From Atractiella rhizophila (Eukaryota): DNA of 32,095 nucleotides. A program made the position numbers and the translations under genes. Below, in pieces: positions 1-29,489 of the stretch. The first letter of the stretch is position 1. The number at the start of each line of letters is the position of its first letter. The notes beneath the pieces were generated by a model. The model did no database searches and had not been told where the DNA came from. It saw only the letters and a list, made by a program, of their open reading frames with translations. The stretch covers positions 1 through 32,095 of the forward strand of contig MU271689.1 in assembly GCA_021432655.1 (NCBI GenBank). The letters are read 5' to 3'.

Positions 1-625
1 GAGAGCTGACAGCGATAAGGGGTCCCGTAACTTGCCTGTACTCATGATATCGACGTTGGCGCTTCGATGAGCGAAAGACAAACAGGACTACACGGCAAAG
101 TGTGTTTGCAGGCCAGAAAATCCACCTGTGTTGGTCGTGAGATGTGGGTTCAGCTGGGCCCCACAAAACAAATGCACCGACAGTCGAAACGGACCTTCGG
201 AATCGGACTCCAAAAGTGAGTCCTGGAGGACTGAAAACAAATGCAGTTTGCCCGGAGTTGGTTAGAAGGTCTCCAGGTGCACAAAAAAAACATGCTCGCA
301 GTGGTCCGTCAAGCTAGGGAAGCCAGTGGCCAGCGGCAAGCAAGCGATTGGCACGCTTGTGTCCGCCGCGCTCGCTCTCCTCCCACAGCTGCAAGGGAGC
401 GAGCTCTTCTAATTCGTTCGCACATGCACCTCCGACGGTCATTAATGGAGACTATCACATTGCTCAATTAAGTTATATCATCCTACCACCATATCCTCCT
501 CTGCTCCACCTTCTTGCATGCCATATTCTGGTTCTGCTCTGTCTTGCTCTTCCAATGCATGCTCTCTTTCCTGAGCTAGCTTTTCGGTAAGCTGAGCCGT
601 ATAAAATGACTGAAATTTCTCTGTG

Positions 626-3600
626 TTAGTATATGGTAATTAGAATGTAATAAAGGAAATTTACTTTCAGCTTGCCCTTTGGTGCGGTCACTCCATAAAG
701 TGCCAGTATTGCTCGTAACTGAGGGATGGTAGGACTGCTGCAGTCAAATGTTGGATCTGTATAGTTGAGGCCAGAGATATCAATGCCGTCAACAAGAATT
801 TGTCCTCCTCCTGCTTGCAAGGATTTCCGTGCCTTTGAAAGTTTCATCTCTGCTTCCTTAAGCTGCTTGTATCGTTCCAGAGATTTGGTGATAACTTCTG
901 AACGGTTATCGAGGAGAAGAGGGTTGCAAAAAGGATCAGTCGTGTCACTGTTGCAAAAGGCATTTGTGTTGAGAATCCAGAGGTCTTTTGTGGTATTATG
1001 CTGATGTTCAATGATGGACTTTCTTTTGGTAGACAGTTGGCGCTCTTGACGAACCGCAGCTTCTCCAGTAGCTCCACACAGCATCAAATCACATGCATGT
1101 TGCACATTAATCGACACCTTGATCATATCCAGAGGCAACGGGAAGAGTTCAGCCGACATTGGAGCAAGAACTGGCATGTGGAAGTGGGAGTGCATAAATT
1201 CGACCATATGAGGATGTGCCAGGATGGAAAGCATTGTCCTAGGTCCGGTGGCAACTCCATCTCTTTGTTCGAGTTTCAGTATCTCCATGACCCTTGCAAT
1301 AATTGGATGTCCATTATCATCTAATGCCGTAGTTGTAACCCATGATCCAACTTGAATTGGCTCGTCCCTATTGACAATGACTGAAGAGACAAGCTGATGA
1401 GAGAATTGAGTAAAAGATGCCCCGTTGCCGCTCAAGCTGGTATTAAGGTGTGTACTGGAAGGGATCTGAGCAAGCTGTGTGTCCTTTGCTTTGACAGTCT
1501 GCTTTGATTGTGAAGCTACCTTGATCTCTCCAGTGCGATCTCTGGGTTCCAGAGTGTCCATATCAATTGCCAAACCCAATAGAAGACGAACTTTGAGGTT
1601 TCGAAATAGTCCACGTACACCATTCCCAGCTTGAACCCACTTTCCAGTTATTTTATCCTTCCAAAACCCTCCACTGAAGATATGTCGGACTCGACTATAA
1701 GCAGCAAAAGATCGGGCAATATCAAGGCTGGGGGCTTGTCGGTTTGAATGAATGGACATGCCACGAATGATTCCATTATAGCTTTCAAATTTTTCAGTTG
1801 CAAAGCTTGAAGCTGGTCCAAACCGGCGCACATGAAGAGGAAGGTGAAGCAGTAGATGAAATTTGCGCTTGTTGAACCACTGAGGTGATAAGAGAGCTGT
1901 CATATCCAGAAAATGATGGATTGCTGTCTCAAGCTCCATGCAGAACTGATTTATATTAAAAATTGATGGACGCCATAATAATCGAGACAAGCGACCAAGA
2001 GCAATCCAAGCATCCAGCTGAGGCTTTGAAAGGGGGTCATAAAGAGCAAATATCGCAAGTTGGGCAATTATCCTGAAGTCTGTACCGACCAAGCTCTGTG
2101 CGTATTGGACGAGAGTTTCTCCTCGAGGAGCTGCGCATCCGAGCCCATTTGGATCTGCTGCAGAAAGCCTCTTGCTAACAAGAATCTTCTGTCTTTCTGA
2201 TAAGCCACTGATGCTGTCTTGCCAGAAATATTTCACAAATCCAAGTAGAATACCATGAAGGATCTCAAATGGCGTATCCTGATGACAGTCAAATGCCTGA
2301 AGATCAAACAGGGGATTATAATGCCACTTTCTAGAAAGTTGATTCTCCTGAAGAGCCTTTAATCGTGTTTGAATATTGTCAGCTGAGGCATTAGCATCTT
2401 CCATAGATTCCGCTAGCTGAAGAAGTTCCTCTGCAAAATGGGAGACAATAGGATCTCTGACGCCTGACTTGCACTGTTCATTTATAACTCCAGTCTTGGA
2501 ACGGGGATTGGCTGCCAGAAGATGAATTTCCTGCGCTTTAGCCCTTGTCTCATTCATAGATCTTGCCTGACCAATTTTCATGAAGTTTGTAATTCCAGTT
2601 TCTGATAACTGATCTCCCTTCTTCTCTTCTCCAACCTTACAGACACGACAGAACTTGAGACTGACCCCTAGCGAGGGAGAGCAAGAGCAAGCTTCGGCCT
2701 GCATTGGATTATCCCCTTCAAAAACTATGACCATTGGGCGAAGTAACAGCTCTTCCCCGGAGATATCGTCATATGAAATGATCCCATTAGACCAATAATT
2801 GTTGAGTTGTTCAACAACACCTTCCAAAAGTTCGGTCGCGGAAACAAGATTTGATGTTCCGATAAAATGGATGTTGAACTCCTGTTGCTGAACCCGATGA
2901 GGAAGACCAGCAAGGGTCATAAGAGCTGAAATGTGCTTATTCCACCTCTTTGATACATTACCAGAGCTGTCATCGCAATAGAGAACTAATGGGACATTGA
3001 GCACCTTTCTTCCACAAGCCAAATCACGAAGAGGGTTGACGAGAGGAATATTAATAGAGTGGAGCTGGCCATCTTGCATCCTGTGAAGGATCGGAGCACT
3101 TGCATGAAAAGTTCCAGGTCTGGATAAGATGCTGGTGATATTGGCTTCAAATGTTGAAACTGGTACTTCCTTTTCTTCTTCCATAATTATCCAACCTCCA
3201 CTTCTATTGGGGTCAAGGTACAAGCCACGAGCATAAAGAGTTTTAGCGCTTCCTAGTAGAAACCAGCGAGAAGGCAGGAAATAGCTTCCATCCACCAGTT
3301 GAGCCGGCTCGTTAACAAAAAATAAGGATCCTCTGACGTGGATAGAAGGTGAAAGAAATTCGGCATCAAGTTCCTCTCTCCATTTTGATGACTGCCACAT
3401 CTCTTTAACCGTTTCACTGCTGTCTTCTGGGTAGAAATGAAGATGTTTTCACACGAGTGGATTGGCAACTTCCTGAGAGATAATTTTCCCAATGTCGTTT
3501 AAATGATAAATATTGCCTTTGTGGCTCGTATACTGAAAAGTTTGAGGACCGATATTGTCATTCTGAAACTGTTGGTGAAGTTTGTTCAACCGATCCTTTG

Positions 3601-4330
3601 AAGGTAATTGTGGAGGAGGAAGGCCTTTTGCAGAACACAGCTCTGGGATGATCCACCATAAAAGCTGACGGAGAGTCTCTGAGATGTGGCGTCGAGGAAG
3701 ATTCAATAGGAGATCGGCCAAAGCTTCTTCAAGTGTCCCATAAGGAAACCAATCATTGGCAGATACCTCTACCAGAAAGGATTCCAAATTCATATCAGGA
3801 TTACTGAACTTATTAGTTAAGTGGTCCTGAAGCCCAAGGATCTTCTCCATAAAAGCTCTATCACGTTCATCCTCAGTCTGCTCTGTCCAAAGTTCTTGCC
3901 ATGCCTGCTGAGCACACATCTCCTGATCTTGATCTTGATCAAATCCAAATTTGGGATCGGTATCTTGAGGAGGAACAGAAAATAGCATCTCTTGCATCAA
4001 TTGTTGTGTTGATGGCAATAGAGGATTGATCCAAATTTTCTGTGGGGCAGGTCGAGCATGAGAGCCACTAAGAGATGTCAGAAACGGGCCACCATCAATA
4101 GTCTGGTTTCCTGCTTCTGAAAACAAACGATTTGGGCAATAAACAGGCTCAAAAGAAAAGTCTGATGGCACCGTGGAAGGGTCTGGAGTAAGGTGGGAAG
4201 AGTTTGAAGCTGAGAGAAGCTGGACATTTTCTCGATGTTGTTTTGAGTTGGCATGTCGTAAACAAAGATGTCGTTCTTTATTCGCAAAGGCTACAGGGCA
4301 AATTGCACAATGAAATCGATTTCCTTTCAA
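626..4330 (-). CDS. CACTA/EnSpm-like DDE transposase (fungal DDxSGNxSKxWNKH type), interrupted by one in-frame TGA at 3449-3451
   Basis: ORFs 3449-4330 and 626-3400 are in the same frame and read EVANPLV*KHLHFYPEDSSETVKEMWQ. Motifs are YCDDSSGNVSKRWNKH, GDNPMQAE, CRVC, DTPFEILHGILLGFVKY and KFHLLLHLPLHVRRFGP..ATEKFESYN (CACTA-type). There is an N-terminal CxxC..HxxxxxH finger at 4235-4309. Probable introns lie at 621-664 (GTAAAT..CTAACACAG) and from 4453 (ATG at 4463). Confidence 0.85.
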
Positions 4331-4705
4331 TTGAAAATGGCTTCCGATCTATTCAAAGGTCTTAAATTGGCTCACTATAAACCAAAATCAGTGCTTTGAA
4401 CACCATGCCGCAATCCCCTCAAGATGGCCTGCCACTGAAACTGCAACACTTACCGGAAGCCATAGTGTTATGTGCTCAAACTCCTTCTTTATCTTCCCTT
4501 TACAAGTTCCACTCTGTGATCAGTCAATCACTGCCCTGGCCGTCAAATAAAAAACTGATCACTTTCGACCCAGCATTTTCCATCAGAGTTCAGACTAACA
4601 ATGACAACAACCACTCTTTCATCCCATCAATCACACACAACTCTCACACAATTTTACTTCAAACATCTCCCATTCAGCATCAGGTACAGATCCAGCACAG
4701 CATCA

Positions 4706-6568
4706 ATGACCAACCCTTTTACATTTCCATCCAACACTGCTCCATCTGCAAATCCCTGGTTGACAGGCGCTTCAATAAATTCCATTTCCTCCATACCATC
4801 AACATCTCAAGCGCAATCACCAGCCACTCCAAGTCCCAGCTCATCCACTTTCCAACACAATCCACGTGTACAAGAATTGCGAGGAACATTTGTGCGCCAG
4901 GCTGTCAGCAGTCTATCGCATCCACCTCTGCAAGTCCTTCTCCTGAAGCTTCGTCTCTTCCAGAATACAGCAGTGATAGAGGCTGTCCTGATGAAGAGTG
5001 AGCTGAATCACTTTCTTGACTCTTCCACAGTTGATGCCTATTGCCTCGCCATACAGCCTTCCAGTCGACTTTGCAACGTCCGCTCAGATGAACTCACCAA
5101 CCAACCATCCAAGTTCCTCAACTCATCCCAGCTCAACACCAGCTTCACCTTATCCCTCTAATCCTCAATCTCTTCCACCTCTTCCACCCTTTCCACCCTC
5201 ATTCACTCCTCCCCCCCTCTCCTTTTCACCTTCGAGTACTTTGCCTTCACACCTTAGCCACTTTGTTCTAAACAAGCCGGCTGTGCGCCCAGCAGACTAT
5301 GCTGCCCTCGAAAGATTCTCGGAGGTGAGTGTTACATTTGCAATAGACTGGGATTTGTTATGTGCTCTTTATGGGCAGAGAGCAATGGCCGGTTGTTTAC
5401 AACGTTGGCCTGGAGCTGCATGCAGCATTGCAACGAGAGATGTGGACCTTGCTGTTGCCAACACGTGTTGACGACATATGTGGGTCAGGCTGACGTGGTC
5501 CAGCGAGAAATGGCAAACCGGGTGATTTTGATTGAGCTGCGAAACCTCATTCAGGATGTTGTTGACATGCAAACCAACGGGTACAAAGTTTCAGACAACC
5601 TCTCAGTTCGCACTCTCTTTGCCAACCATGTACATCACTCACCAGGCCATCTAGACACAATTCTATGCCATGGCCCGTGCATACCTCTTAGATCCCAGCA
5701 CAGTGTCATTCAAAGCCGCTCACACAAAGCTGATGGGAAGTGATAGGTTTAAATTTACTTACATCTAACCAAACTTACATCTTGTTTAGGGTGTTATCAA
5801 GTCTCCCGGTTTTACTCACATCCCGACAGTTCTCAAGGACAATGCCACTGTCATGAAAGCAGTCTCGAAAGATGTGCAACGGCGCTGTACGAAAGCGCGC
5901 AATACAATTAAGACCGAAGTGAGCATGCCCTTTTTGGTTTCTGCTTTGTGGATAAAGAGATATTTCTGTCACAGATCAAGGAATCTATCGAAGAATTACA
6001 GCACATTGAGGACCTTACGACTCATCTACATCGGTTCCGACTAGGAACTTGTGCCAGAGGTGTTTCGCAGGCGGAAATGATGCTCGTATCGATGCTGGTA
6101 AGTTCGTTCTGCTTATCTCAGGTCCTTCGCTAACACTCCCGTATCCAGCGTCAGTTTGTTAAGTTGGACCTTGAGCTCGGAAGCCAAGGAAAGAAGGTCA
6201 CTGTCAAGGTGACGGCTTCGAAGAAGCGCAAGCGCATCGATCTCCTCGGCGAGCGTAACGACGACGATGAGGAGGAAAACTTGTCGCTGTGGGATGCTCT
6301 GGACAAGGAGCTCGCTGCAATGTCGAAGATGAAGCATGCAGATCGATTCACGTACGCTACAATTTCTGCCAGGGACCTACAGCTGATGTCAGTATTGGGG
6401 TATAGGAAAGCAAGCCAGGTTTATGCAGAAGACCTCATGCGATACCACAAGGCTCCAGAAAGCGATATCACAGACTCTCACCGAACTTACAATGCGTATT
6501 TCATAGCCGTTCTCCCTCAAATCCTTGCTTCGGGGAATGCGATACTCTCGAGAGGGCAAGGTTACTGA
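4706..6568 (+). CDS. Multi-exon transposon companion protein (TnpA-position gene), function unknown
   Basis: Ser/Pro-rich N-terminus followed by exons joined in frame by canonical introns, e.g. 5919-5974 (KTE|IKES) and 6098-6148 (SML|RQF, GCTAAC branch). It has a KKRKR NLS-like stretch and LWDALDKELAAM..VYAEDLMRY. It lies inside the TIRs, divergent from the transposase. The start codon and 5' introns are uncertain. Confidence 0.65.
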
Positions 6569-7084
6569 AATAAGAGCGAGAGTGACGCGAAAATGATCGT
6601 AGGCTGAGAGGACGGAAGGAGACTAGGCCATGGCGAGTGGTTGAGGTGTGTTAGGGGACTTAGCAAGGTTTTAATCCAGTGTTCAGGTACCACAGCCCCT
6701 TCAGTCTGTTTGCTTTTACGTTATTATTCCATTTTCATTGCAATTTAATATCTTCCTTCAATGTATTGTTGAGACTCAGGACGGTAGCATTGTAAGAGAT
6801 CCGGGAGGGGAGGGAGGGGAGAGGAAGAGGAAGAGGACTACAATGAGCCGGAGAGCCGCAAAGCCAATATGCCCGGCCTTCAGGACTCCTGAGGATGCAA
6901 CCCAGGGACTGATATTGGACTCCTCAGTGAATTGGGAACGTGCTACCTGGGCTGAACGTGCGTTTCGAGTTACTACATCCAACTCGATTTCGAGTCCCTC
7001 AAGATTGCGACGAGATCGACAAGGGGATTCTTCGCCCTGCAGTCCTGACAGAAGTTCCTGGGACTGCGCGCTCAACCTGCCGTG

Positions 7085-7614
7085 TATGATTGAGCGATCT
7101 GGCCGACTGAGATAGGCATCGCCCCTTTATAAGTCTCAGAAGACAGAATGAACAAAAAACCGTACAGGAAACCCAAACTGCCGCACGAGATGGTGTCACG
7201 AAGGAACCTTGCGAACCAAACAATCTTTGCAATACTGTATCACGATATCATGGCTTTGATTTTCCGGGCCGAATAGTACGAACGAGTCACTGATGTCGAG
7301 AATGAACAGGATGTACAGCTCGATGGCGATGACGATGTTCTGTTTCGTGTGCTTTTAGTTCCACCGTACTCATGCTGGAGAGTGAAACGCACTCGTGGAG
7401 TTGTGGAGATGATGCGGAAGCAACGGTAAAACTATGTTGTACGCAATGAATGTAGGCCGTTAAGAAGAATACACAGCAAACAACAACAACATACCTGAAG
7501 GACTCCTATCCCCCAAAGAACAAATGTGACAATCATAGATACAATGGTGGGAATTAGAATCTTTCCACAAAAGTTGTCTTCCAAGGAGTCAGGCGGCTGA
7601 GTTTCCATTTCCAT
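7085..7614 (-). pseudogene. Decayed integral membrane protein gene (DUF6534-like basidiomycete family), interrupted by the CACTA-like element
   Basis: GKILIPTIVSMIVTFVLWGIGVLQ|intron|FYRCF..|intron|KQNIVIAIELYILFILDISDSFVLF resembles the GxxxxQxyxYf..K..V..l..ld pattern. A hydrophobic frame (IIVLFVF) continues across the insertion site into 1-88. Confidence 0.4.
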
Positions 7615-7707: not shown

Positions 7708-7861
7708 CTGGATCAAGCCTACGCTGGATCAAACCTACACTGGATCAATTATGCTGGATCAAACGTCCGCTGGATCAAACGTACGCTGCCTCAATTTACG
7801 CTGGATCAAATGTTACGCTGGATCAAACATCGCACGGAACGCTGGATCAAACGGTCAATCC
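7708..7861 (+). repeat. Array of ~9 ACGCTGGATCAAA motifs at mostly 14-17 bp spacing
   Basis: Copies at about 7708, 7721, 7737, 7751, 7767, 7783 (degenerate), 7798, 7815 and 7839. The array ends CGGTCAATCC and is flanked by TGATAT at 7701 and 7862. Confidence 0.9.
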
Positions 7862-10390: not shown

Positions 10391-13300
10391 ATGGATACCC
10401 CACTCAAGCCTTCTTCGTTACATACCAACGATCACGATCATGAAGGCCATGGAGAGTTGCCTGATGAGGATAACCAATTAGGCGCCAAATCGCAGGAAAT
10501 TCCATCAGTAGAACGTGACACAGTTCACACCGTCTCGGTGCTACAGTTGCATCCTCGACCCAGCCCATTTCTGGTCAAAGCGGCAATTCTAGCTCAGCAA
10601 CTTCGCGGCGTCTCACGTACCGCCGAGAGCCCATTTCCTTCGACGTTCCGACCCCAATAGCTATCTTATTCTTGGTCTCCTCCCATGTTCAAACTCCCAA
10701 ATCTTCAAAGTCCTGGAGAATGTCAAAAAGACAAACCGAATAAGTTCGAATCCTCGCCATCAACAACGGGGGCATCTGTACTGCCTCCACCCTTTACATG
10801 CTCCAAGTTGGAGACCTCCTTCAAGTTCCAGAGGGAGAAGACGCCCGGTCGTGCGATGTTTTCGATCTCATCTGCGGCACTTCCACGGGAGGGTGGATTG
10901 CCCTCATGCTCGGACGATTGGGAATGACTGTTTGAAAATGCATACGTGCATATGAGCAGATCGTACAGCAGGTTTTTTCCGTAGATGCTCTAATCTCGAG
11001 CGAAGGCAGGGTGTACTCCGCAAAGAAGCTCGAAGCCCTCTTCTTTGACATCATGGCACACTGCATTATCAGAACAATCGTCCCATCTTCCTATGAAGAA
11101 TGGCGATGTCGCAGATCGATGTAGAAGTTTCGTCGGCTCAAGATACGAATCAGACGCCGTCGTTTTGACAGAGGTGCGCACGTAGGACGTCCGCCATTTT
11201 CGCGTCCGCCATTCACCTCGCTTTGCTGCTAAATGTGTGGTGGGAAAGGCAGCAAGAGCACTGCACCTTCCTCTGATTGACTTCTTCCATCCTATCGTCA
11301 TTCACCATAGGAAAAAATAACCCAGCAGCATTAGCGATTGAGGAGTTAAAGAGGATTTGGGGATAAAGAAGCGAAGGAGCCTGTCTTGTATCTTTGGCGT
11401 CAGGGCTCGCTCAGGCTGTCCCATTGCGTCATACGATAGCTGAGATTGAGGGGACTGTGAAGGCCTTCATTGAGGATGGCTCCCGCGTGGCGAATCAGGT
11501 GAAAATGATGATGCAAGAACAACGTCTGGGACATCGCTACCATCGCTTTTCCGTCCATATGGTGGGAAGCATAAATGGGAATGGGATCGAACCCAGGCTG
11601 TCGTCGACCGTACGAAGGCGTATATGGATGTGATGGGTCATGAAGCACATAATGCTGCTGACCACTTCGTACAAGGTTTGATCTATCACCTCTTGTTTCG
11701 ATACCATGTCGATGTTCTGATGAGTGAACGGATTGCAGTCCGTCGGAGGTTTCCGTTACCGCCTCCAGGATCTTGCTTCGGGCGAGAGACTGAGATCCAA
11801 CTTGCCAGAGAACCTATCCTTAACGCCCGCCGCGTCGGGATTGTCGGTGGAGCTGGAAATGGAAAATCCACCGTGGCGCTCGACATCCTGCACTCAGAGG
11901 AGATCAAGCTGGCCTTCGCAGGTACTCGAGAAGACCGCTTCTGGGTTCGCTGCGACACATTGACAACTTTTCCAGGCTTGGACCACATTTGCAAAGATAT
12001 CTTCGGTTTGTCCCAGTCTAGCAAGACCTCACTTGAGAATGTGGCCACCTACTTCAGAAGTCGGAAAATATCTTCTTGTTTTGGATTACTTTGAAGCTCC
12101 TCTGGTTGCTGACAACGACAAAAAGGAACACTTGTTCGAACACCTCTTTCAGACAGCCCATTTAGGTCAGTGCTCGTCGTGGTGCATCGGGGAGATCGAG
12201 CAGAACCGTTATGCGTGCAAGGGAAGGCGGGTATGAAGTTTGTCAAAGTCTCAGTGGGTGGTTGGCGGAAGAGCATGCGTTGGAACTCTTTGAAGGTTTA
12301 TATCAGGGAAAAGCTGCGTTCTCATGACCACGGCTATTAAACAGCTGGATTTCCATGCTCCACGCTCTAGGTGTGAACGAGGATTCAACCATGACACTCG
12401 AACAATTGGCAAACAAGTGGAAGGAGAAAACGACGTGTGTAGCTGTTTTTCGGGGTGAAGATAGCGATAAAGCCATCACCCTCAATAACTCCATATCGTC
12501 CTGCCTCTATTATCCAGCTCTCCAAAAGCAGGGGGAGTGCGGGTTATTTGCTCTGCTGTTGTGAGCTCCTGACGGTGGGAATAAAGCGTTTCTTTCTTCA
12601 GTCTCGCCAGTATTCCAAACAAGTATAGAACCTCATCCCATTCAAGAAATGTATTGCTCACATTTCCAATGTGTGATAGTGTTCGAGTCCACTTTCAAAG
12701 AAAGTAACGGAAGCATCGGGAACCCAGCAACAGCGACCATTGTCAATACGTCTTATCGAACCTTTGCTGTATTTTTTCAATATATCCACACAACGTGAGA
12801 ATCGAGTTGCTTCATTCGGCAGATTAATCAGCTTTGTAGTGAGCTACAATTCCGAAACGAATCTTATGTTCAAGATGACGAAGAAAACGTATACCAAAAG
12901 GATGTGGAGGACAAAAACGACGTCTTAAGAGCTTATACAAAGTGGAATGAAGACATAACCCTTTGCGTCGACCAGGAGAAAGACGGCTGCGATCCCATCG
13001 AGCTCTATGTTCTAGCCGACACTGAGTCGTTGCCGTTTTCTTATCTCATTAACCTACGCGCAAGTTACAATTTGGGTAGCATACGAAGTCAAGGGTTTGC
13101 AGCAGCAGATTAGGGATCATCTGCATCAATTTCTCACCCCTCAGTCGGCATATGACGCGCTGTTTAGCACGCCTTCTCTCATTTTCCCTGAATTGAGGGC
13201 CGTGATAATGAGCTATGTTTCATAGAATTGGGTACACATATCATACCTTACCGTCACCGCCAACGTAATTACTGATTGGGATTTGGTGAGCAGCATGCAG

Positions 13301-16007: not shown

Positions 16008-17010
16008 CTAGTGTGTCAACGGCCTTCATCCCTCAGGCACCCAACCCATTTGCAAGGGGCATGGCCCCTTGAACCCTACTGTGACTCTTGTGGAGGGTTC
16101 AAGTCCCAGTCCAGTGAGAAATGCATTTTTCCCCCTTCAGAATAAAATTTCCTCGCAGCTTCAGAAAGGCACAAGCATATGCAGTAAGATGGTGTAATTC
16201 ATTTTATTTCAATGTGCCTAGTGAGGGAGGTATGAAGGCTCAGAAGTGCGTTTTATGACTCATGCCAAGAACTGATGAATCTTAGAAGAATAGATAGACA
16301 AGTATGTCAGTGCCCTCATCCCTCAGGCATCCTCCCCGGCCAGGTGCTTTGCCCCTTGGACCCCAGCCTCCGGTGGCCACTGCGTTGAGCTCTTGCCGCT
16401 GGCAGCCATTGCACGGGGCCTTGCCTTCGGCGAGCACATATATATATGGGTTTTGGTATGAATCTGTATGATGTCATTATAGGTCTGTCTACATGGATCC
16501 AATTGTGAAAATTTAAAAACTTCTCTATACACTATATTTTCCGTCCTCCTATTCTCTATCCCTTGCACTTGGTATAAATAAAATCCAAGATTCTTAGCAT
16601 TCGAAACGCTAGAAAGTCCTACGTAAAGTTGCCCATGTGCAAAAACTGGTGTGTCCAAATACAATCCAACAATCTCCACTGACTGGCCTTGTGACTTGTT
16701 GATGGTGAGACAGAAAGCAAATTTACAGGGAATTGAAACTGGTGTAAGGTAAACGGGAATGAATTGGAGACCTTGCTATCCAATGCAATGTGTGGGATGA
16801 GGACTGAGGTGCCCATGAATCTGCCTGTAATGATGGTAGTATCAATGACATGCGAGAGCAGCTGGGTGATAGACACCTTTCTGGAGAAAGAGTACTGCCA
16901 AGCTCATCTTGACTGTTACTACAAGTTGAGTGATTACCATTATTGATCTGACCTCTCTCCATATTACATTTATATGATTAGTGTGTCATTTCTCAAACCC
17001 CACAAAGCTG
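16008..17010 (-). mobile_element. Helitron 3' remnant (Pif1-like helicase C-terminus plus 3' end)
   Basis: GLRNDTLII, VLIPHIAL, FPFTLHQFQFPV, AFCLTINKSQGQS, VGLYLDTPVFAHGQLYVGLS and TENIVYREV. The minus-strand terminus is CTAG|T at 16008, with hairpin CAAGGGGC-CAT-GCCCCTTG upstream. The region is CpG-depleted. Confidence 0.9.
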
Positions 17011-25383: not shown

Positions 25384-25620
25384 GCGCTGGATCAAATGAT
25401 TACTCGCCTGCATTGGATAGGATGGTCATTTTAGTGGCACCGCTGGATCAAAAAGTACGCTGGATCGCTAGATCAAACCGTCGGTTTCATGAATACGCTG
25501 GATCAAAAAGTGGCTACGCTGGATCAAACTGTCTATTTCACGGATACGCTGGATTAAAAGGCAGATACGCTGGATCAAACGGTCAGTTCCACAGATACAC
25601 TGGATCAAAAGGCAGATACG
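25384..25620 (+). repeat. Second ACGCTGGATCAAA array with ~51-bp higher-order (dimeric) period
   Basis: About 9 copies with alternating 21- and 30-bp spacing (25495, 25516, 25546, 25567, 25597). It shares ACGCTGGATCAAACGGTCA with the 7708 array. Confidence 0.9.
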
Positions 25621-25998: not shown

Positions 25999-27184
25999 CA
26001 CGGCAAAGTGTGTTTGCAGGCCAGAAAATCCACCTGTGTTGGTCGTGAGATGTGAGTTCAGCTGGGCCCCACAAAACAAATGCGCCGACAGTCGAAACGG
26101 ACCTTTGGAATCGGACTCCAAAAGTGAGTCCCGGATAGGGACTCGCGTGAATGTGAATAATTCATGAACAGTCACCGTATCATTCACCAAAAAGTCATGA
26201 ATAAGGTGTTCATGAACTGGTGACTGTGACTGTGACATGAACTATGAGCGTCAGGCCTGAGAAATTCTTGAGTCATGACTAGTCATGAATAAGTCACCGG
26301 GCACAACTCATGTTGGCCGGGTTACAGAGGAACAGTCATATCGAAAAGATTACCAGCAGACAGTTGAGACGGAATATGATGAGAATGGGGAACGACAAGG
26401 AAGCCGTTGTCCTAATCTTGCGAAGCTAGCAATAGCTGTGCTCTCCTGCCCTGGTGTGCCATTTCCTTACTCCTTGCCTTCTAGTGACCCTTCCTTAGTG
26501 ACCAGTACCGGTGCGGAATGTGCTTTCAGTGCGGGAGGACTTTAGATCAGCGGCCTCCGGTATAATCTATCACAAGATTCATTCCGTGCTGCTATGGCTT
26601 TAGGCTTCTGGTATGATGCTGGATTGCTTTCTGGGATAGACAAAGAGCTTTTTGATTACTTTAAGACAAAGTAGACATATACACACATACAAACCAATCA
26701 GAACTACTCTTTCCCGCCCTGCTTCGTGACTGACTCATGAAGTGTCATGAATAATCACCTGAGAATCATGACTTGTCATGAATGTAATGTATGATCCGTG
26801 ACATGACCGATGAATTGAAATTTTGGTTGAAAAAGTGATGACTAGCCGTCATGAACTTATCATGAACTTGTCATACAAGTCCCTAGTCCTGGAGGACTTA
26901 AAAACAAATGCAGTTTGCCAGGAGTTGGTGATAAGGTCTCCAAGTGCTCAAAAAAACATGCTTGCAATGGTCCATCGAGCTAGGGAAGCCAGTGGCCTGC
27001 GGCAAGCAAGCGATTGGCACGCTTGAGTCCGCCGTGCTCACTCTCCTCCCACAGCTGCAATGGAGCGAGCTCTTCTAATTCGTTCGCACACGAAACTCCG
27101 ACAGTCATTAATGGAGACTATCACATTGCTCAATTAAGTTATATCATCCTACCACCATATCCTCCTCTGCTCCACCTTCTTGCA
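25999..27184 (-). mobile_element. Second copy of the CACTA-like element's terminal ~430 bp, interrupted by a hAT
   Basis: 25996-26135 plus 26894-27184 align with 88-518 at high identity. The flanks differ beyond CTA. Confidence 0.9.
26136..26885 (+). mobile_element. Non-autonomous hAT element (750 bp) with dimerisation-domain remnant
   Basis: TIRs are TAGGGACT...AGTCCCTA. The 8-bp TSD is GTCCCGGA (26128-26135) / GTCCTGGA (26886-26893), and the empty site is seen at 220-227. About 11 TCATGA subterminal palindromes are present. It encodes CPNLAKLAIAVLSCP|VTSTGAECAFSAGGL*ISGLRYNLSQDSFRAAMALGFW (26405-26674). Confidence 0.92.
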
Positions 27185-28490: not shown

Positions 28491-29489
28491 CTGTAATTCC
28501 ACATATACACCTCCCAGCAGTTGCTAACACTCCTTTCAAGCTTCAAACTGAATTAACTTTTCCTTCCAGATTCCAGTACCCTCATCCCTCGGAGGGACCA
28601 CATCAACTTTTTGTTTCTACTCTAACCAGTGATTCAGTACTCATCACACTTCTTTGTAAACTACATACTCTGTTTGCTTGTATTCTCCTCCTTGCTTTCT
28701 TTTGATTAAGAAATTGTGTGCAGGCACTCACAGCTACAAGGATGACAAAATGTGAGGCAACAGAGATTTAAACCAATGCCAAAAGCAAGTTAACTCTGTA
28801 CATAACACCAACTACACCATCTAGCAACCCTGATACCTTATAAACTTACTTTGTATAACTAAGGAAAGTCTTGCCCAAAGTGCCAAGAAGTTGACTCAGT
28901 CATGTCATAAAAACAATTTTTTTCGTCTCTCAAATATCCTTTGCTGCATACGGTTGGAAAGGCGCCGACACACATATTCTGGTGGGGTTGTTGTGGGTGG
29001 TGAGAGAAGTGCTCAAAAGTACATGCGTGAGTCATGCTAAAACACGTCGTGCTTTATATGTAAGGATCTTCGTCCGTTTTTACCAGTGTTGGCAAGCGGT
29101 TGTTGGTGTTTGCAATCTACACGAAGGAACTATGTCATTTTGCGTGCTACTTTGACTTCTCATCAGTTTCAGCGGTATTTGCTATTATCAGCTTGCCGTG
29201 ACGTCAAAGTATCAGTAGCACGATCACATGCCAGTATCTCCAACTTCAGCAGAAGGAGAGCACAGCACCTTTCAACGTCAAGCAGCCAATCGGCAAATAC
29301 AGCCATCAAGACACCACTTGTATCAACGTCAGCGGGCTACGCATCTCTAGCACTCTCAACACAAGGGGTTTCGGGGCTGCTGAAGCGATTGGGATTAGCG
29401 AAACGTACATTTGCACCAACTACAGCCAATAGTGGACAAAGAGGTGTCGAGTGGCCCAGAGCAGAAGATGCCTGGGCCCCTGCAAGCTG

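Follow-up and report, generated by a model that had tools for sequence, protein, structure and literature searches.

A probable ESTA/CNEST-type DNA transposon at a TA target site in Atractiella rhizophila

The transposable element at positions 91-7084 (6,994 bp) of contig MU271689.1 from Atractiella rhizophila (GenBank assembly GCA_021432655.1) is most likely a cut-and-paste DNA transposon of ESTA/CNEST type within the CMCT clade, present as a non-functional copy, a reading to which we give a probability of about 0.85. We analyzed positions 1-32,095 of the contig (the window, 32,095 bp), where the element has CAC...GTG termini with TA adjoining each side and encodes a RAG1-like transposase and a partner gene. 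ESTA was named by Kojima (2025) for EnSpm-like elements with a TA duplication, CAC ends and a RAG1-like transposase that bears the motifs C(2)C and H(3-4)H after its second D and before its E, and was set apart from fungal EnSpm, which has a 3-bp duplication, and from Plavaka (PMC12730594; here and below, the available portion of the article). CNEST of Cryptococcus neoformans (PV485210, transposase CNAG_05910) is an active element of 7,152 bp with TA duplications, 33-bp terminal inverted repeats (TIRs) beginning CACGG and a CMC-type DDE transposase without Repbase matches, and has been proposed as a new CMC superfamily (PMC12810828, likewise its available portion). CAC or CACGG ends, TA duplication, a length of 7-11 kb and a CMC(T) transposase are thus already combined in these two descriptions, contrary to the first-pass annotation of this DNA, which had the element delimit a poorly characterized lineage; its reading as a CMC-type cut-and-paste element with TA targeting is supported.

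Limits and target site of the element

The left border reads TA/CACGGCA at 89-97 and the right border ...TGCCGTG/TA at 7078-7086 (slashes mark the borders). The features at the two ends are as follows.

89-90, no strand: left TA of the target duplication; a single TA at the empty site
91-114, plus strand: left imperfect TIR with CACGGCA core; 15/24 bases match the right end, the first 7 perfectly
205-232, no strand: three subterminal GGACT/AGTCC motifs, at 205, 219 and 228
6835-7065, no strand: seven subterminal GGACT/AGTCC motifs
7061-7084, minus strand: right imperfect TIR, from comparison of both ends
7085-7086, no strand: right TA of the target duplication; a single TA at the empty site

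Searching the same assembly with each end returned an empty counterpart (C381:39915-39990), which consists of the left flank, one TA and the right flank, compared with two TAs at the filled site. The same joint, from 88 to 7085 with 6,996 bases omitted, appears in contigs from two public DNA runs of one sample, which are not independent of the assembly and may represent the assembly's own sample. An open frame spans the insertion site in C381, and three paralogues of the interrupted host gene, at 71-76%, also lack the insertion and keep one TA. The single TA in all four therefore favors a pre-insertion state at C381 over an excision scar, as judged from these sequences.

The borders were also delimited by comparison between copies. 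A second full copy on C2 (6,980 bp) is 97.6% identical to the window element, and homology between the two is confined to 89-7086, i.e., the element and both TAs. The copy on C109 aligns eight bases beyond, to 7094, via partial likeness of the flanks, its own end reading CCATG/TA. Blasting five end types against stretches of the same genome showed that 14/14 distinct related ends touch TA, a dinucleotide with a frequency of 0.041; seven belong to this family, five to a sister family at ~70% and two to a third family. These counts are lower bounds from a genome that was searched and sampled only, and the same search fixed no end for the C70/C58 subfamily. We also attempted blind pairing of CAC with GTG around transposases, which gave TA-flanked pairs in 3 of 26 long metagenomic loci and other flanks in 7 locus-dinucleotide cases. 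Because it yields many chance pairs, the approach was dropped as border evidence, and only homology borders between copies were trusted.

GGACT occurs three times in the first 250 bases and seven times in the last 250, against 0.27 per 250 in the interior. It ranks first among all 5-mers for presence at both ends, a rank to be read in the knowledge that the motif was chosen after viewing the sequence.

The first-pass annotation had pointed to the imperfect TIR with its CACGGCA core, TA on both sides, the GGACT motifs, a second left end after TA at 25999 and two head-to-head genes, all of which we recovered. Its termini and TA duplication were upheld by the blast of the ends and the aligned flanks of the copies; as for homology running past 91 or 7084, C2 agrees with both borders and C109 departs by the eight bases noted above. 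The element is complete, as had been claimed, with respect to both ends, but not with respect to the transposase, which contains two stops.

The transposase and its relatives

The transposase gene occupies the minus strand, with exon borders predicted from GT/AG and frame.

478-4463, minus strand: transposase gene, ~1,280 codons; exons 4463-4454, 4374-665 and ~609-478; stops at 4349-4351 and 3449-3451
4200-4320, minus strand: N-terminal C2H2-like motif, CxxC...H...H, read off the translation; without Pfam match
1786-2974, minus strand: RNase H-like core; DD ~2974/2971, D 2713, CxxC 2650/2641, HxxxH 1858/1846, E 1786
955-1540, minus strand: BAH-like β domain with conserved H-x-C-x4-C...H; predicted local distance difference test (pLDDT) of the model 82.5
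665-775, minus strand: weak HeH/LEM-like tail, running on into exon 3; Pfam PF12949, E 0.022

The positions of the core residues were converted from the conserved columns of a 113-sequence alignment, which preserves DD-x-SGN, D137, C158/C161, H422/H426 and E446, with the CxxC (C158/C161) and HxxxH (H422/H426) falling between D137 and E446. The model of the core (pLDDT 87.1) finds its best structural match in RAG1 (Foldseek E 5.5e-9; Z 15.7, root-mean-square deviation (rmsd) 4.4, 378 aligned), ahead of ProtoRAG (Z 14.2), Transib (13.0), P (11.8) and Hermes (6.2). Sequence profiles were far less informative: nothing in Pfam reached its curated cut-off in the transposase and 36 relatives (37 whole transposases), and Transposase_21 (PF02992) remained sub-threshold at 14.1-14.6 bits here and 21.4 bits in the best relative, P0003, against a cut-off of 28.6. 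The Plavaka domain PF18759 had no match at E 0.1 in the same 37 proteins, and a PDB sequence search with the family profile gave an unrelated protein at E 0.092 as its best match.

An exhaustive homologue search returned 2,989 clusters at 50% identity (E 0.001). The best 120 of 239 matches in a protein search comprise six proteins of Atractiella rhizophila, one being the window's own model, and 112 of Agaricomycetes at 34-44% identity; the named homologues among these 120 are labeled hypothetical, uncharacterized or unnamed at NCBI, as the first-pass annotation had anticipated. Twenty representatives include 12 Agaricomycetes, four rusts, one Phenoliferia and two chytrid proteins. The rust homologues, from Puccinia graminis, P. 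striiformis, Melampsora and Phakopsora, share 35-43% identity at E 1e-72 to 1e-104, and Transposase_21 or Plavaka matches were found in 0/4 of them. Expansions of CMC elements in Agaricomycetes and Pucciniomycotina have been described on the basis of Pfam domains (PMC5751038, available portion). The chytrid proteins, P0216 and P0234 of Phlyctochytrium arcticum, are homologous transposases outside Basidiomycota, and the lineage can no longer be called restricted to basidiomycetes, as had been supposed.

Classification among CAC-ended transposons

The window element resembles ESTA in its TA duplication, its CAC..GTG ends and its size, which lies within the 6.6-11.6 kb of the non-N (TET-less) ESTA families. 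Every ESTA start compared, 79 of the 80 in Data S1 and 4/4 in Table S1, is CAC, and ESTA-5_PHord begins with the same eight bases as the right end of the window element (PMC12730594). The transposase is likewise RAG1-like and places both C(2)C and H(3-4)H in the stretch from the second D to the E. Homologues of the window transposase occur in the same rust genera as ESTA, for which Puccinia, Melampsora and Agaricus are the hosts given in the available portion of the article; Atractiella is not among them, and the window element carries no TET/JBP cargo. CNEST shares the ~7 kb length (7,152 vs. 6,994 bp), the CACGG start, the TA duplication and the CMC-type DDE transposase, and differs in being active, whereas the window copy is broken. 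These likenesses suggest that a single superfamily has received two descriptions, as ESTA from genome sequences and as CNEST from observed jumping. Our literature search found CNAG_05910 in the CNEST paper alone and the combination of ESTA with EnSpm-like transposon in Kojima (2025) alone; for Atractiella transposons it returned unrelated papers only, judged by their listing.

Several observations weigh against this placement. The filing under ESTA/CNEST is by features of the element, four of which agree with ESTA membership, and the putative clade position is supported only indirectly, by the rust homologues. Cryptococcus is absent among the best 120 of 239 matches and the 20 named representatives, both lists being ranked by score. 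The CNEST TIR spans 33 bp, compared with seven perfect bases and 15/24 matches here, which is a family-level trait. Among the Atlas neighbours of the transposase are Plavaka clusters (0.90, rank 5) and Transposase_21 clusters (0.89). Finally, where TA is invariably the flank, a duplication would look no different from termini that include part of the TA themselves.

An unlikely alternative, in line with the first-pass view, is a distinct CMCT lineage without a name that has the same CAC ends and TA targets as ESTA/CNEST and yet branches apart from them. It agrees with the failure of any family profile to reach its cut-off in the 37 whole transposases and with ESTA being known from rusts and Agaricus only, Atractiella being unmentioned (PMC12730594, available portion). 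The transposases of this genome also form a branch of their own with Phenoliferia (support 0.968), in a tree that lacks CMCT outgroups and was used just to choose proteins for naming. On the other hand, ESTA host genera are the source of the rust homologues (E 1e-72 to 1e-104), and the element matches ESTA in its ends, its target, its size and its RAG1 likeness.

Less probable still is that no true duplication occurs, each end holding one base of the TA (A-CAC...GTG-T inserted bluntly into T^A) or one end holding the whole TA. Such an arrangement fits the filled and empty sites equally well, as it would for any strictly TA-flanked element; however, the CAC..GTG ends match those of the CMCT clade, in which target duplications measure 2-5 bp (PMC12730594), and fresh CNEST insertions have been interpreted as TA duplications (PMC12810828).

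The element shares with EnSpm/CACTA a CAC start, subterminal repeats, a transposase accompanied by a second gene, the CxxC/HxxxH motifs and a weak likeness to Transposase_21. It differs from them in ends that read CACGG rather than CACTA or CACTG, a 2-bp TA instead of a 3-bp duplication, a Transposase_21 score of half the cut-off, and a divergent partner without a Transposase_24 match, and the first-pass description of the element as CACTA-like does not hold in the strict sense. With Plavaka (A and B) it has in common the CMCT motifs, possible 2-bp duplications, basidiomycete hosts and the Atlas neighbourhood; Plavaka ends are TGT..ACA or CATCA..TGATG without a fixed TA (PMC12730594), and the window element lacks a PF18759 match. 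It is very improbable that the element is a diverged member of EnSpm/CACTA or Plavaka whose target is unusual: the Transposase_21 scores of 14.1 bits here and 21.4 in P0003 and the Atlas neighbours speak for it, while those scores fall below 28.6, no Plavaka match appears at E 0.1, fungal EnSpm duplicate 3 bp, and Plavaka ends are different (PMC12730594). RAG1, ProtoRAG and Transib provide the top structural matches of the core and also have CAC-starting ends, but identity is 9-17%, and the window element has an extra BAH-like domain and a 2-bp TA. The target duplication of Transib and RAG is 5 bp, and the partner was not RAG2-like by any test run, with no match.

The partner gene and its placement

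4707-6568, plus strand: partner gene; 3' exons 5489-5605, 5655-5735, 5790-5918, 5975-6097, 6149-6351 and 6406-6568

The partner lies head-to-head with the transposase, with ~240 bases between the start codons. Its six 3' exons make 272 codons without an internal stop, provided that intron 5736-5789, with its GG donor, is removed by splicing; the putative 5' part is Ser/Pro-rich and includes a candidate exon ending at 5324. Exons and splice sites are conserved in an alignment with the sister family. This family has GG as the donor of intron 5736-5789 in 3/3 copies, while the sister family has GC and the C119 copy has GT. Either the intron departs from the canonical form, or the family founder already carried an impaired partner. 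An intron of the sister-family partner (L020:8230-8800, G000:C38) holds a ~550-bp insert with direct terminal repeats that resembles a tiny long-terminal-repeat element.

The partner protein had no meaningful Pfam match, nor a TnpA-type or Transposase_24 match, and a homologue search returned just the two models of its own genome. Its Atlas matches to DUF6532 and DUF6698, below 0.8, are leads only, and all structure rows have a template modelling score <0.3 by query. The TnpA and TnpD genes of plant CACTA elements are co-oriented.

Scanning metagenomes for relatives yielded 68 loci, and in these relatives the transposase is followed by a conserved gene of several exons. Motif matches of this gene all lie on the transposase strand (14, 14, 16, 7 and 14 in metagenomic loci), and it is downstream on the same strand in 11/11 loci with at least three ordered motifs; an annotated example of such a partner is HWV62_8146, numbered two from the transposase HWV62_8148 and located on a contig of the same length. 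Within its own genome, the head-to-head layout is found in this family and the sister family, and by one motif in C70 and C58, and the partner was not demonstrable for the C5/C130 subfamily. Given the tandem partner in 11/11 relatives against the head-to-head arrangement here, the layout is local, a lineage trait within Atractiella rhizophila and not a family-wide one, and it does not define the lineage as had been assumed.

Two of the metagenomic loci, L041 and L042, contain one 7,936-bp element at 99.95% identity with differing flanks and TA/CAC...GTG/TA in each. At L041:163-8098 and L042:591-8526, the same relative thus sits at two TA sites in two metagenomes and is a candidate for a recently active member. 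L048 and L090 have a common TA/CAC left border.

The window partner is probably the same gene as the downstream partner of the relatives. A profile of the metagenomic partner aligns with it collinearly over ~160 residues at 17.6 bits, compared with 8.4 for the best of 2,000 shuffles. Two aligned intron positions are common to the window gene and the relatives (10/10 and 10/11 donors), and the exon order is alike, as is a W-x2-[LV]D motif that follows a basic/acidic stretch. Two results count against this identification: hhalign on thin partner profiles gave 1.4% probability over 26 columns, and single-exon partner profiles picked the right exon in 1/5 cases. The alternative is that the element captured its second gene as cargo and that this gene has no relationship to the partner of the mushroom-type relatives, with which the hhalign probability, the absence of a direct tblastn match for P0121 in the 68 metagenomic loci at E 0.05, and the position on the opposite side and strand would all agree. 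The collinear match, the introns at the same two places and the shared exon order and motif make this alternative rather unlikely. An orphan partner gene that is conserved and flexibly placed would be a trait of the family that was not found in the literature searched, as far as its available portions go; the available portion of the ESTA article mentions neither a partner gene, its orientation nor a BAH domain (PMC12730594), and that of the CNEST article mentions no second gene (PMC12810828).

C-terminal domains of the transposase

In a wide structure search over 48,161 chains, BAH-containing chains account for 18 of the 19 top rows for the β domain, the best matches having Z 8.9 (rmsd 9.2, 119 aligned) and Z 8.3 (rmsd 4.0, 118 aligned). 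Foldseek also finds BAH, but just at E 0.009. The H-x-C-x4-C...H signature is present in 59-61 of 63 rows, and the modelled BAH-like domain is probably zinc-binding. With regard to a possible aromatic cage for methyl-lysine, only two aromatic columns of the β domain are conserved (56/63 and 50/63 rows). A BAH domain in such transposases was not found in the available portions of the literature searched; Iyer et al. (2014), Repbase or Dfam may already have it, or this family. The tail match to PF12949 (E 0.022 here, 0.0016 in the paralogue P0003) is below the curated cut-off in both proteins, and an HeH/LEM-like tail occurs in 4 of 265 proteins, namely three models of this genome and P0125.

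Host gene, copies and decay

7087-7614, minus strand: 5' part of the host gene, hydrophobic and membrane-protein-like; continues at 88-1, the exon being interrupted by the element
25999-27184, plus strand: truncated further left end of this family, preceded by TA, 97% identical; insert at 26136-26885

The window copy has transposase stops at codons 12 and 312, where other copies have sense codons; C2 and C109 are broken elsewhere. On its own this copy is non-functional, and it could be mobile only with transposase supplied in trans. With C109 as the outgroup, 96 polarized differences between the window copy and C2 comprise 23 CpG>TpG, 24 other C>T, 27 T>C and 22 transversions. As CpG makes up 444 of 3,123 cytosines, we infer a roughly sixfold higher rate of change at CpG sites, which is what methylated DNA would be expected to show. 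An unpolarized CpG count of 61/112 mixed both directions and was discarded in favor of the polarized one.

The left end at 25999 stops at 27184 and is split by a 750-bp hAT-like insert at 26136-26885, whose inverted ends are of the TAGGGACT type and which is flanked by an 8-bp repeat (7/8 identical). This insert holds an apparent remnant of what we take, by eye, to be a hAT dimerisation domain. One contig of run X2 joins telomere-like repeats at window position 7214.

Elsewhere in the window, arrays of a CGCTGGATCAAA-type unit form two clusters at 7721-7859 and 25384-25617 (11 copies), which are also found on C381. The frame at 11474-12094 has a P-loop and weak NB-ARC/AAA_16 matches, resembling a fungal NLR-type gene, and a minus-strand frame at 16323-16775, which has a weak UvrD_C_2 match (E 0.009), resembles a PIF1/Helitron-type helicase at its C-terminal end. 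The segment at 28627-29068 is 71-87% similar to an insert interrupting related transposase loci on C3 and C70 and is probably the end of another transposon.

Proposed mechanism and implications

Judging from the fold and the chemistry of RAG and Transib, a transposase dimer would engage both CAC ends, and excision would proceed by nicking followed by hairpin formation on the flanks. The 3' ends would then be joined across TA with a 2-base stagger, whose repair would duplicate the TA. The GGACT arrays may be binding sites for the N-terminal zinc finger of the transposase or for the partner protein, the partner could be a helper with a role like that of TnpA in plant CACTA, and the BAH-like domain may contact chromatin or another protein. 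The partner would be an old component of the family, shifted from a downstream tandem to a head-to-head position in the Atractiella rhizophila lineage.

In the RAG system, the PHD finger of RAG2 reads a histone mark for RAG1. We tentatively raise the rather unlikely idea that the transposase of the ESTA/CNEST type, as a RAG1-like enzyme, has a chromatin reader of its own, in which a zinc-bound BAH-like domain would read a histone mark to choose TA targets, the HeH/LEM-like tail of the present protein would serve as a DNA or nuclear-envelope tether, and the partner would be a GGACT-binding helper or an anti-silencing factor.

While the ends and the TA target are of an already known kind, the partner gene and the BAH-like domain are details not found in the available portions of the literature searched. 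The exact empty site offers a clean reference for the ends and target of a family of 2,989 clusters that lies outside Pfam and is named hypothetical at NCBI. Under the placement proposed here, ESTA-type elements reach a further order of Pucciniomycotina and also, at the protein level, a chytrid, and the BAH-like domain makes target choice testable. If the transposase does read chromatin, a widespread fungal superfamily would be a natural model of chromatin-guided RAG-type integration.

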